A stretch of 64,000 nucleotides of DNA from Escherichia coli (GTDB lineage: Bacteria > Pseudomonadota > Gammaproteobacteria > Enterobacterales > Enterobacteriaceae): the NCBI RefSeq assembly GCF_013122565.1, contig NZ_CP053258.1. One strand, 5' to 3'. Positions 50,119-54,855 of the stretch are shown here, one piece after another (position 1 is the stretch's first letter; every line of letters starts with the position of its first letter). The position numbers and the translations under genes were made by a program. The notes beneath the pieces were generated by a model, which searched no databases, was not told the DNA's origin, and was given only the letters and a program-made list of their open reading frames with translations.

Positions 50119-51072
50119 TTATCCTTCAAGGTATTCAAGGTCAAAGTAGTGATAACCAAACTGTTTATCGGCAATGACCGTACGCATTTTTCCACCGGGC
50201 TGAATATGACGGGTTAAATAATCCATACTCAGCGCGGGCGTCAGACAACCGCTTTCTCCGTAATGGGCTACCAGGTCGATAACGCCAGCAGCAGGCCGGG
50301 ACGGCATTTGTCGCCGTTCGCTGAAGGCCATGACATCAATATCCGTAGCATGCTGTGGCGCAGTGCCGGAATGATATTCCCCGCATTGCAGCCTGATGGC
50401 GCTCTCACGCTGGCTGAGAATAAAACAACCCACGCGTTCAACAGATAAATTCACCTCATCAGCACGACGGGGGAATAAACGCTTAGGCGGTTTACCCACA
50501 TCCTCTTCAGAGAATACCAGTACCGGAATTGCCCGATAGGCAGCGCAAATCACCACGTTATCGAATACATCCCAGGCGAGATAATCCTGCGCCATACGCA
50601 GCGCCTGAACGAATGCCTGTTTTTCGCCACGAATTTTGCAAGTCGGCTCAGTTATCGAAAACTTCTTAAGTAAATTCTTGGGAAGCGTATCAATAGTGGC
50701 GATATGCAGCGCACTGGAAATTTTTTCAAACGGACCGGATTCGCCCCAGGAATCGGCATAAATAAATGCCGTGCGCGATTTCATTAACTTCATGCGTTCT
50801 TTAGTCGGCATTTGTTGTAATGCAGAATCGGTCACCTGCTCCATCGCCTCAAGGTAAGGCATATATTGCGGATTACGGATCCGTTCCGGCGCATAAATAT
50901 CGTTCTCAACGCCAAAGCGCTTCAGCCCCCAGCCATTAGCACGGGTGCCATATAATCCTCTTTCGTACATATGTGCTTCCCAGGCGTTGAGCCAGGTCGG
51001 CTGATAAAAATAAAAAATGTCGTCCGGTTCCGTAAGCGCCCAGGAAGACAGGTAGATACTCTTTTCCGTCAT
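50119..51072 (-). CDS. Unassigned 317-aa protein, possibly a KS N-terminal-like/thiolase-fold accessory
   Basis: ATGA overlap with the upstream KS gene. The N-terminal IYLSSWAL strand resembles KS-N-like accessory proteins (weak, from recall). No active-site motif seen. Confidence 0.3.
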   Translation of the reverse strand: MTEKSIYLSSWALTEPDDIFYFYQPTWLNAWEAHMYERGLYGTRANGWGLKRFGVENDIYAPERIRNPQYMPYLEAMEQVTDSALQQMPTKERMKLMKSRTAFIYADSWGESGPFEKISSALHIATIDTLPKNLLKKFSITEPTCKIRGEKQAFVQALRMAQDYLAWDVFDNVVICAAYRAIPVLVFSEEDVGKPPKRLFPRRADEVNLSVERVGCFILSQRESAIRLQCGEYHSGTAPQHATDIDVMAFSERRQMPSRPAAGVIDLVAHYGESGCLTPALSMDYLTRHIQPGGKMRTVIADKQFGYHYFDLEYLEG

Positions 51073-52296: not shown

Positions 52297-54855
52297 TTAT
52301 CCCTTAATGACGAACGCGTAGTAGTTGCCGCCTTCCGTTGCGCCAACAAGCAGGACATGGTTCAGCGCAAGTTTCATCGACTGGCGTACAAAATTCACAC
52401 GCTCATCAAAGAATTCCACCGTATTTGGAATCGCAGGTACTGCCTGCTTCTTAATGCAGTCAGTAATCACGGCGAGGTTAAGCAAACCAGCGGCAGAGGC
52501 GACAAAACCAAAGCAAGCGTTGTAGTTCACTACCGGCACCGCCGGGTTTTGCGCAGCGAAGGTGTTGTAAATGGCGTCAATTTCGATACGAGAATGGTCA
52601 TCGCTGCCGTTGCTGGTACCACAGACCAAATCAATATCGCCAGCAGAGATGCCCGCATGCGTAAGGGCGCGTTCAATGGCCAGCGCCATCGACGCGGATT
52701 TTTCTTCCAACAATGAGGCGTCGAAGTAGGTATTACTACATGACTTACCGTAGCCCACCACTTCCGCGAGAACCTCAGCGCCACGCGCCGCAGCCAACTG
52801 TGGATCTTCCAGCAGCAGCATGCAGGCACCCTCGCCCGGAACATAACCCTGCGGATCTTTACCGTAAATTTGATAGTCGCTCGCCTCAGCCGTCATGTGG
52901 ATCTTTTGCGTCACCGCATCCATATACAGCGACATAGACGGGAAGTACTCATCCGCGCCGCCAACCAATACCTGCGGTTGCAGGTTCTGCCGGACGATTT
53001 CATAACCGTAGGTCAGCGCGCCCAGCGCCGAGTTTTCCCCTGTCGCAAGCGTAGTGGTATACCCTTTGATCCCTTCAGAGATCCCGCAGAACGTTGGGAT
53101 CGCATTCATCAGCGAGCCAGGAAATTCCGACGTACGTACTTTGCGTGGATCGGGTTTCAGACTTTGCAGATATTTGTAGGTGGTTTCCTGCGGACCGCGG
53201 GACATCCCCATGATCATGCCCAGCTCATCGCCATCGCGTTTGATTTTACGCTTCGCCTGTTCCAGCGCTTCGGTGAGTGCGATCAGGGCAAACGTGCCGC
53301 CACGGGTCGCTTTACGCTGATCGAAACGACGCAGGTGTTTACGCGGCTCCAGCCCGGAAACCTGGAACGTTTTAAAGTTGCTTGCCGTTTCCGGAAGCGT
53401 AGCGTCGCTGAAGCTGTACTCTTCATCAAACAGCTCGGCAAACTGGTTTGATTCATCCAGCACGGCCAGCAGCTCTTTGGCTTCTTCCAGTGTATCGTCC
53501 GGGAAGGTTACGCTACCCAGTTCAACGTGGTGGTCCTGCGCCCAGATGTTTTCCAGAACCTGGTTGAGCGTGTGGCCTATTGCGGATACTGCACCGACGC
53601 CCGAGATAGCCACACGCTTCGAATCATAGGTACTGACCGGAATGGACGCGGGCTCCATGCTCAGGATCATGCAGCAATTGTTGCCGCCGAAGGCATAGTT
53701 ATTCTTCATGAAGATGTTCACTTTGCGATCGCGAAATTCATTCGGCACATAGTCCAGATCGCAATTCGGGCGTGCCTGGCTGAAATTCAGCGTCGGCAGT
53801 ACGCGGTTGTCCGGCAGTGTTGCCAGACAGGCAATCAGTTCCACAATCCCCGCTGCGCCAATGTTGTGGCCAAAGTAAGATTTGGTGGAGCTCACCAGCA
53901 GTTTATCGTGGTTAGCGAAGACCTTTTTCATTGCCAGCGTTTCGATACGGTCATTGGCTTCGGTACCCGTACCGTGCGCGTTGACGTAATCGATTTGCTC
54001 CGGGGTTACGCCCGCATTTGCCATTGCCTTGTTCATGACCTGCACCGCTCCGCTGGCACGCGGATCTGGCCCGGTTTCATGGAAAGCATCGCAGGAAGTG
54101 GCGTAAGAGAGGATCTCACCATAAATGGTCGCCCCGCGTGCTACGGCGTGCTCATACTCTTCCAGCACGATAGCGCCAGCGCCTTCACCAATCGACATAC
54201 CGGACTGACCCGAGAACGGCGTACAAGTGTCTGGATGCATGACATTCAGTGCGTAGAATCCGGCAAAGGTCGGCAGATAGATGGGCTCGGTACCTACTGC
54301 CAGCATGGTTTTGCTTTTACCATTCTGGATGTAGTCAAAGGCCATCCCCACGGCGTTCGGGCTGGCGGTACACGCGGTCGCCACCAGTTCAACCCCGCCC
54401 TGTAAGCCCAGCAGCGTTGAAACGCTGGAACAACATGATGAGAACGCGCCGGAAAAAAGTGCTTTGCGCAGCGAGAAATCTTCCATGCGCTGTTCGAACA
54501 GCGGTAAAAAGGCCTCTGTACCCGCGGAGGAAACACCGACGATCATGCCTGTTTCTTTGAGAGTGTCACGGCTATCCATCAGGCCGGCCTGACTCAGCGC
54601 ATCTTTACCCACTTTGTAGGCCCAGAGCGCTGCGTTATCCAGTGAATCGATAACATCTTCGTTCAGATCGGAGTATTCAATGTCATGCAACACTTCTGCC
54701 GCACGCGCATTTTCAAACCATTTTGCAAAGCGTTCGCTATCCTTAACGCCATTTTTTTTATTTAATAATGCTTCCCGGAAATCCTGAATATTTTCCGCCA
54801 GTGAGGACAAAATCCCCAGCCCGGTAATAACAACTCTTTTCCTGTTCGTTTTCAT
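52297..54855 (-). CDS. Fused KS-CLF protein: active beta-ketoacyl-ACP synthase plus a catalytically dead KS-like domain
   Basis: The N-terminal half has Cys162 (ATACTAS), His294 (NAHGTGT) and His330 (YFGHNIGAAG). The C-terminal half has Glu607 (LATGENSA), Thr747 (VCGTSNGS) and Phe784 (CFGFVASAAG) at those positions. Confidence 0.85.
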   Translation of the reverse strand: MKTNRKRVVITGLGILSSLAENIQDFREALLNKKNGVKDSERFAKWFENARAAEVLHDIEYSDLNEDVIDSLDNAALWAYKVGKDALSQAGLMDSRDTLKETGMIVGVSSAGTEAFLPLFEQRMEDFSLRKALFSGAFSSCCSSVSTLLGLQGGVELVATACTASPNAVGMAFDYIQNGKSKTMLAVGTEPIYLPTFAGFYALNVMHPDTCTPFSGQSGMSIGEGAGAIVLEEYEHAVARGATIYGEILSYATSCDAFHETGPDPRASGAVQVMNKAMANAGVTPEQIDYVNAHGTGTEANDRIETLAMKKVFANHDKLLVSSTKSYFGHNIGAAGIVELIACLATLPDNRVLPTLNFSQARPNCDLDYVPNEFRDRKVNIFMKNNYAFGGNNCCMILSMEPASIPVSTYDSKRVAISGVGAVSAIGHTLNQVLENIWAQDHHVELGSVTFPDDTLEEAKELLAVLDESNQFAELFDEEYSFSDATLPETASNFKTFQVSGLEPRKHLRRFDQRKATRGGTFALIALTEALEQAKRKIKRDGDELGMIMGMSRGPQETTYKYLQSLKPDPRKVRTSEFPGSLMNAIPTFCGISEGIKGYTTTLATGENSALGALTYGYEIVRQNLQPQVLVGGADEYFPSMSLYMDAVTQKIHMTAEASDYQIYGKDPQGYVPGEGACMLLLEDPQLAAARGAEVLAEVVGYGKSCSNTYFDASLLEEKSASMALAIERALTHAGISAGDIDLVCGTSNGSDDHSRIEIDAIYNTFAAQNPAVPVVNYNACFGFVASAAGLLNLAVITDCIKKQAVPAIPNTVEFFDERVNFVRQSMKLALNHVLLVGATEGGNYYAFVIKG

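Follow-up and report, generated by a model that had tools for sequence, protein, structure and literature searches.

Positions 50119-54855 of a 64,000-nucleotide stretch of Escherichia coli DNA (contig NZ_CP053258.1 of assembly GCF_013122565.1; hereafter the window) hold, on the minus strand, three co-directional genes for ketosynthase (KS)-type proteins. The first encodes an 852-aa fusion of a KS with a second half resembling a chain-length factor (CLF), the second a KS with serine at the position of the usual catalytic cysteine (KS2), and the third a small protein (p317) that appears to be a strongly diverged CLF-type partner. The features of the three genes are as follows.

53644..54855, minus strand: KS half of the fusion, aa 1-404, a FabF-like condensing enzyme by phmmer and residue alignments; Cys162 (54370-54372), His294 (53974-53976), Lys325, His330 (53866-53868) and Phe389, codon positions checked
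52297..53643, minus strand: CLF-like half of the fusion, aa 405-852, a KS fold without the triad, aligned to FabF; Glu607 (53035-53037), Thr747 (52615-52617) and Phe784 (52504-52506)
51069..52292, minus strand: KS2, 407 aa, GTG start, Ser-type KS; Ser161 (51810-51812), Cys159 (51816-51818), His294 (51411-51413), Lys324 and Tyr329 (51306-51308)
50119..51072, minus strand: p317, 317 aa, putative cryptic CLF-like partner with a predicted thiolase fold; Lys151 (50620-50622) at the Cys column

Of 5,426 complete E. coli genomes, 382 contain the 4.7-kb stretch, with identities of 95-99.9%. In all 382 the fusion is a single open reading frame (ORF), as it is in ~116 full-length protein clusters and in 44/44 species loci. 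An earlier note on this DNA had allowed that the fusion might be a sequencing or assembly artefact of two genes; because one reading frame runs through all of these clusters and loci, this has been ruled out and the fusion is genuine.

Residue-by-residue phmmer alignment to solved FabF structures places Cys162, His294 and His330 of the N-terminal half on the catalytic residues, and Glu607, Thr747 and Phe784 of the C-terminal half in the same columns, which confirms the Cys-His-His and Glu-Thr-Phe sets previously read by eye. Together with Lys325 and Phe389, the three N-terminal residues are invariant in 117 protein clusters and 43 species. Among the four KS-type units at this locus, only the N-terminal half of the fusion has a cysteine, two histidines and a lysine at the catalytic columns. 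The closest solved sequence to this half is PDB chain 9s5h_B (267 bits by phmmer); FabF scores 250 bits and Iga11 203 bits, and entry 9s5h also has a KS-like chain C. Each of the N- and C-terminal ketoacyl-synt domains of Pfam is found on two stretches of the fusion (176.7 and 161 bits, cut-off 20.8 bits). The fusion lies below the cut-off of the FabF equivalog TIGR03150 (454.1 versus 493.75 bits), and its KS half is, as judged from its sequence, FabF-like but distinct from the housekeeping FabF.

The two halves of the fusion match each other with an hhalign probability of 99.6%. An AlphaFold2 model of the whole protein, built on 45 sequences, has a pLDDT of 84.4 and a pTM of 0.92. When this model was compared with the PDB by Foldseek, only the KS-CLF didomain of PfaC (6riw) covered both halves in one arrangement (E 5.6e-50, TMq 0.74), whereas single KS chains covered half of the model (TMq ~0.43). 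The model and the match over both halves support the earlier proposal that the fusion is a covalent KS-CLF pair, in which a triad-less partner would be packed on an active KS as a pseudo-dimer. PfaC has the same order, an active KS and then a triad-less CLF-like domain on one polypeptide, forming a pseudo-dimer. Its identity to the fusion is only 18%, however, and the E. coli didomain is free-standing in a dissociated system, its N-terminal half being nearest by sequence to FabF and 9s5h_B. PfaC, in contrast, is part of a multidomain megasynthase in which the KS-CLF is followed by dehydratase (DH) domains.

The glutamate of the C-terminal half had been noted to stand where the CLFs of type II polyketide synthases (PKSs) have a glutamine, which is conserved in those of aromatic type II PKSs. 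No conserved glutamine occupies the Cys position of the C-terminal half: column 607 holds Glu in 82 of the 117 clusters and Gln in only 11. Family members carry E/I/Q/V/N/M/A/D at this site, and distant clusters carry F/V/Y. Because the column varies so freely, Glu607 is incidental and has no catalytic meaning.

The KS2 gene starts at a GTG codon at 52292, four bases past the stop codon of the fusion and downstream of an AAGGGA Shine-Dalgarno sequence. This start agrees with the PGAP annotation and with the lengths of homologues (403-411 aa). The 429-aa ORF assumed previously has an ATG start inside the fusion gene and 22 extra residues, and the residue numbers based on it equal the KS2 numbering plus 22; the protein is 407 aa long. 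Both Pfam ketoacyl-synt domains are recognised on KS2 (49.6 and 46 bits against the same cut-off), and its score with TIGR03150 is far under the equivalog cut-off (51 bits versus 493.75).

The motif KGQIGYTATGSG was found in KS2, and the alignments confirm that the column of the second histidine is occupied by a tyrosine, Tyr329. The nucleophile, however, had been misplaced: KS2 had been read as a Cys-His-Tyr protein, and alignment to solved structures moves the nucleophile residue from Cys159 to Ser161, giving Ser161-His294-Tyr329. Where canonical KSs have T-A-C-S-S-S-L, KS2 has C-T-S-N-S-S-L. Ser161 falls without gaps on the catalytic-Cys column in three phmmer and five profile alignments to solved KSs (the latter against DEBS-type, FabF, Iga11 and AntD ketosynthases), as well as in an L-INS-i alignment with the N-terminal half of the fusion, while Cys159 aligns with the canonical Thr at position -2. 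With Ser161 as the nucleophile, KS2 has the fixed 17-residue spacing to the helix end that is also seen in DEBS and in the N-terminal half of the fusion.

Ser161 is invariant in 118/118 clusters and 46/46 species, and His294, Lys324 and Tyr329 are likewise invariant in the 46 species, down to 30% identity. Cys159 is present in ~85-90% of close relatives, being swapped for S, G, A or T in 11 of the 118 clusters and 7 of the 46 species. A profile search of 1.84 billion representative proteins recovered ~20 more free-standing relatives of KS2. In the 19 distant relatives that were aligned, the nucleophile column holds Ser in 18, the first His and the Tyr are kept in all, and all 19 have G-x-(D/E)-G-S at the site of the canonical F-G-G-x-N. 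Two observations weigh against the assignment of Ser161. One hhalign run, against the family of the N-terminal half, put Cys159 in the Cys column by opening two 2-residue gaps, and one of the distant relatives (P0398) has Cys at the nucleophile column, so that Ser is not absolute. The hhalign placement is the less likely one because it breaks the 17-residue spacing, and because Ser161 is invariant and Cys159 replaceable.

With Ser, His, Lys and Tyr at the catalytic columns, KS2 lacks the Cys-His-His-Lys set. It also differs from KS(S)/KS(Q) domains, in which Cys is replaced by Ser or Gln and both His residues are kept: Ser161 agrees with this pattern, whereas every member has Tyr329 in place of the second His. 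KS2 with its partner may act like a KS(S)/KS(Q) domain, yet by its residues KS2 does not belong to that group. Its sequence conservation marks it as a distinct KS subfamily with its own active-site set, rather than a decayed copy of a condensing enzyme.

The third protein, p317, has no match in Pfam, in NCBIfam or by phmmer in the PDB, and its hhalign probabilities against the operon's three KS profiles are below 1%. Its predicted structure has the duplicated alpha-beta-alpha-beta-alpha thiolase fold. In two remote metagenomic clusters, the protein next after the Ser-type KS matches by BLAST both p317 (E 1e-13 and 6e-16) and, with E 7e-7 and 4e-5, the fusion's CLF half. As detection from sequence only failed, p317 is linked to the KS fold through the predicted fold and these distant intermediates, and both agree with its original description as a fourth KS-type unit. 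Chained (transitive) alignment through the distant relatives places Lys151 on the column of Cys and Glu607. The same position is obtained from the secondary-structure register, in which Lys151 lies two residues ahead of a helix, like Cys162 and Glu607 in the fusion model, and most members of the family have K or R here. We take p317 to be a strongly diverged CLF-type partner with Lys or Arg at the nucleophile position. A point against a purely passive partner is that p317 retains ~40 invariant residues, many of them charged, which exceeds what such a partner would need; invariant motifs are C145-K-x-R-G-E150, ERVGC216 and YG-SG275. Cys145 was considered as a hidden nucleophile and ruled out, as it sits in a strand six residues before the Cys-equivalent position. 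The protein is annotated as a 'hypothetical protein', or as an 'ATP-binding protein' in some RefSeq records and, by NCBI, for most of its homologues. The latter label has no support in the sequence or the model, and looks like annotation carry-over from the adjacent ATP-binding cassette (ABC) ATPase gene.

Several features tie KS2 to p317. The stop codon of KS2 overlaps the start codon of p317 (ATGA), and the two genes are adjacent in 46/46 species by genome scan. Such proteins are naturally fused in P0400 (784 aa), where a Pro-rich linker connects a Ser-type KS to a p317-like part; p317 matches residues 468-769 of P0400 by BLAST (E 1e-22), and the metagenomic contig that encodes P0400 shares the gene order of E. 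coli. The simplest reading of these gene arrangements is that KS2 and p317 form a second KS/CLF-type heterodimer, against which it counts that the natural fusion is known from this single contig only. The four units had been described as four steps in a graded loss of the catalytic triad. This description does not hold, because the Ser-His-Lys-Tyr set of KS2 is as strict as Cys-His-His while the residues of the CLF half drift, and the second and third genes overlap and are fused in a distant homologue. The pattern is instead one of two enzyme/partner pairs, and we hold with moderate confidence that the locus has such a two-pair architecture with a non-condensing second pair.

Under the mechanism that we propose, the three genes would supply two KS/CLF-type pairs to a dissociated (type II) fatty-acid/polyketide-like synthase. 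In the first, the Cys-His-His half of the fusion would be the iterative condensing enzyme and the C-terminal half a catalytically inert partner packed against it, which by analogy with other CLFs may help to shape the acyl pocket. The second pair, KS2 with p317, probably carries out no Claisen condensation, because the Cys and the second His are absent, and is probably catalytic, because its own residue set is under strict selection. Our preferred reading is that, like the KS(S) loading domains, it would act at chain initiation without elongating, by either decarboxylation of malonyl-acyl carrier protein (ACP) or loading of a starter. The cluster has no other priming enzyme, which was counted toward this role. 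A specific part in priming is nevertheless a tentative suggestion, and two points weigh against it. The second His of FabB/FabF-type enzymes is required for malonyl decarboxylation, so that Tyr329 speaks against a simple decarboxylase of the KS(Q)/KS(S) type. In addition, the Ser at the Cys position of NysA has been reported not to be the critical residue (PMC4540446). More broadly, the separate priming, elongating and chain-length functions suggested earlier are plausible.

A serious rival to priming is acyl transfer or off-loading, because Tyr replaces the second His, unlike in a classical decarboxylase, and because the cluster is also without a thioesterase. In such an enzyme Ser161 would accept a finished acyl chain, or one from the primary fatty acid synthase (FAS), in oxoester linkage, and the chain would then be transferred to an acceptor or the cluster ACP. 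A Ser and a His without the decarboxylation-linked second His would fit this chemistry, and the cluster has no recognisable lipid acyltransferase. The structural neighbours of p317 include thiolase-fold acyltransferases and Ser-nucleophile enzymes (ChlB3, CerJ, DpsC), and the NCBIfam model of the KS-like 'acyltransferase subunit' AmcF (cispentacin) gives KS2 62 bits, under its cut-off. However, those acyltransferases belong to a KAS III-like family, whereas KS2 falls by sequence into the FabF/PKS-KS family; an acceptor-binding domain is not evident, and YcdU or another membrane protein could equally be the transferase. We regard an acyltransferase as possible but rather doubtful.

It is very unlikely that KS2 and p317 both lack catalytic activity and serve the fusion as scaffolds or regulators, with residues conserved for folding or binding only. 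The canonical triad is indeed absent from both, and non-catalytic KS-like partners are common, the CLFs being the standard example. Ser161, His294, Lys324 and Tyr329, however, lie exactly in the catalytic columns and are invariant in the 46 species and in nearly all of the distant representatives, whereas the same columns drift in the inert CLF half. Hardly credible is a graded decay of one triad, in which KS2 would condense through Cys-His-Tyr and Glu607 would substitute functionally for the CLF Gln, since the one profile-profile alignment with Cys159 at the Cys column and the frequency of Cys159 in close family members are outweighed by the eight other alignments and the multiple alignment that set Ser161 there ungapped, by the change of Cys159 to Gly or Ala in some intact clusters and to S/A/T in distant ones, and by the lack of conservation at column 607.

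The three genes are part of one tight array, all on the minus strand. Its order is tpsA, tpsB, acpS, SDR ketoreductase, FabZ-like dehydratase, ACP, GcvT-like, 852-aa fusion, 407-aa KS2, 317-aa p317, MacB-type ATPase, 218-aa secreted protein, FtsX/MacB permease, LolA-like, 462-aa secreted protein, malonyl transferase and ycdU. Besides the fusion, KS2 and p317, the genes from acpS to ycdU are as follows.

57755-58123, minus strand: AcpS-type phosphopantetheinyl transferase (Pfam, PGAP, conserved order)
56980-57741, minus strand: SDR ketoreductase (Pfam, PGAP, conserved order)
56428-56976, minus strand: FabZ/FabA-like dehydratase (Pfam, PGAP, conserved order)
56125-56406, minus strand: ACP (Pfam, PGAP, conserved order)
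54929..56089, minus strand: GcvT-like aminomethyltransferase-family protein (Pfam GCV_T 3.7e-33, 115 bits)
49401-50108, minus strand: MacB-type ABC ATPase (Pfam, sequences, synteny)
48761-49417, minus strand: p218, with signal peptide (sequence, synteny)
47450-48760, minus strand: FtsX/MacB permease (Pfam, sequences, synteny)
46653-47441, minus strand: LolA-like protein (Pfam, sequences, synteny)
45268-46656, minus strand: p462, with signal peptide, likely outer-membrane barrel (sequence, synteny)
44313-45254, minus strand: malonyl-CoA:ACP transacylase (Pfam, sequences, synteny)
43330-44316, minus strand: YcdU membrane protein (Pfam, sequences, synteny)

Since the cluster has a ketoreductase (KR) and a DH yet lacks an enoyl reductase, its acyl product is probably unsaturated or hydroxylated. 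Against this, the host FabI could act in trans, so that the missing enoyl reductase is no proof of an unsaturated product. Neither an enoyl reductase, nor a thioesterase, nor an AMP-ligase/adenylating domain was recognised among the cluster proteins by Pfam or NCBIfam. The MacB-type ABC pump, the LolA-like carrier and the probable outer-membrane barrel would together carry the product to the cell envelope, and the presence of this export module and of two secreted proteins suggests delivery to the outer membrane. The 218-aa and 462-aa secreted proteins belong to no Pfam or NCBIfam family; p462 ends in ...GFKYYL, an aromatic-rich motif typical of outer-membrane barrels.

In every species locus long enough to show it, the GcvT-like gene is immediately upstream of the fusion, and the same holds for three distant metagenomic clusters. 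The GcvT-like protein scores far under the equivalog cut-offs (136 versus 300 bits for NF001567, 99 versus 235.85 for TIGR00528) and is on this basis a member of the fold family only. We know of no precedent for a GcvT fold in a type II FAS/PKS cluster. The core of GcvT-like protein, KS:CLF, Ser-type KS and p317-like protein is kept in three very distant metagenomic clusters. In one very distant cassette (locus L053, 12726-15782) a type I PKS module (KS-AT-ACP), a MatE exporter and a zinc-ADH-type reductase stand in for the ABC/LolA set, and a P450 is present as well, so that the same four genes also serve in other pathways.

One possibility, which we consider improbable on present evidence, is that the four-gene cassette is an unrecognised biosynthetic module, in which the Ser-type pair would act with the folate-family enzyme to give the ACP-bound chain a one-carbon or amino-bearing starter or terminus. 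The lipid so made would be exported to the envelope in E. coli O157:H7, Proteus, Klebsiella and relatives, and in many of these the operon would be co-transcribed with, and possibly serve, a two-partner-secretion (TPS) exoprotein. To our knowledge, such chemistry is not known for proteins of the ketosynthase fold. If true, new chemistry by the Ser-type pair and the GcvT-like enzyme would be of high interest: a new activity of the pair would widen the known chemistry of the ketosynthase fold and suggest that major enteric pathogens make an unrecognised surface lipid.

A second SDR gene lies between the permease and the LolA-like gene in clusters of the Serratia/Paraburkholderia type and in metagenomic locus L051 (L040-L043, L045, L047-L051); it is lacking from E. 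coli, and may change the reduction state of the product. The array is headed by a TPS pair at 58139-63659 (minus strand), made up of TpsA (1270 aa, with TPS and haemagglutinin repeats) and the ShlB-type TpsB, and tpsB ends 15 nt before acpS. Among the E. coli-type species loci long enough to include this position, nearly all have TpsB as the next gene upstream of acpS. Proteus and Providencia have TpsA at this place, and the Serratia/Paraburkholderia clade has neither. A functional link of the lipid with the secreted TPS protein is possible.

By genome scan, 46 species keep the order of the genes between acpS and the malonyl transferase gene; they are mostly Enterobacterales together with one Neisseria, one Acinetobacter and one Paraburkholderia. 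The operon is also present in Klebsiella, Enterobacter, Proteus, Serratia and others. In O157:H7 Sakai the counterparts of the three genes are ECs_1289-ECs_1291, KS2 being ECs_1290 and p317 ECs_1291, within the run ECs_1284-ECs_1298 that is flanked by ycdT and ycdU and includes the ACP gene ECs_1287; this location is O-island 47 (OI-47). OI-47 measures 31.7 kb and occurs in nearly all O157:H7 strains (PMC8565820). The operon is carried by essentially the whole O157:H7 lineage. A concrete architecture can now replace its vague label of 'fatty acid biosynthesis genes'.

Some parts of this architecture have parallels in known systems. Highly reducing type II PKSs, such as those of ishigamide (Iga11-Iga12, 6kxd) and anthraquinone (AntD-AntE, 6smo), resemble the first pair in the similarity of the KS half to Iga11, but have one separate KS/CLF pair each, with no Ser-His-Tyr KS described there, and p317 has no detectable sequence similarity to the Iga and Ant CLFs. 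KS(S) loading domains retain, as far as known, both His residues. They head the PKSs of polyene macrolides (NysA, RimA), and their role there is held to be selection or decarboxylation of the starter rather than condensation (PMC4540446). Unlike these domains, which sit in type I modular synthases, KS2 is free-standing, has Tyr at the second His and has its own partner protein.

Aryl-polyene (APE) clusters have a LolA-like protein and envelope export of lipid, and both they and the OI-47 operon occur in E. coli. Both are type II FAS-like clusters with their own ACP, KR and DH, and with two ketosynthase systems in one pathway; in the APE cluster these are ApeO-ApeC, as separate proteins, and the FabB-like homodimeric KS ApeR (PMC8358021). 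The OI-47 operon differs in that its first pair is fused and its second system consists of a Ser-His-Tyr protein plus a cryptic partner, and in having a GcvT-like gene and a MacB-type ABC exporter; no aryl-starter genes were seen in it. The earlier remark that the arrangement is unusual for enterobacterial lipid clusters is fair when measured against ApeO-ApeC and ApeR, although the fused KS-CLF itself has a precedent in PfaC.

The sequence has been public since the O157:H7 genomes, and fused KS-CLF proteins have a solved precedent. A literature search found no published function or product of the operon, nor any description of the Ser-His-Lys-Tyr subfamily, of the 317-aa protein as its CLF-type partner, of the two-pair architecture or of the constant GcvT-like association.

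In the window, a ~32-kb stretch from ycdU to a tRNA gene is bounded by tRNA-Ser(GGA) (10956-11043, plus strand), a P4-type integrase gene (41160-42251, minus strand) and an IS200 transposase gene (42542-43051, minus strand). Its position corresponds to that of the SpLE1 element of O157:H7 Sakai. The G+C content falls to 0.34-0.38 at 20-24 kb of the window. On the other side of this boundary, ycdU (43330-44316) closes the array, and Proteus has a weak homologue (23% identity) at the same place. E. coli K-12 does not carry the island and presumably retains ycdU alone beside serX, in which case its ycdU resembles what is left of an island that was lost or never completed.

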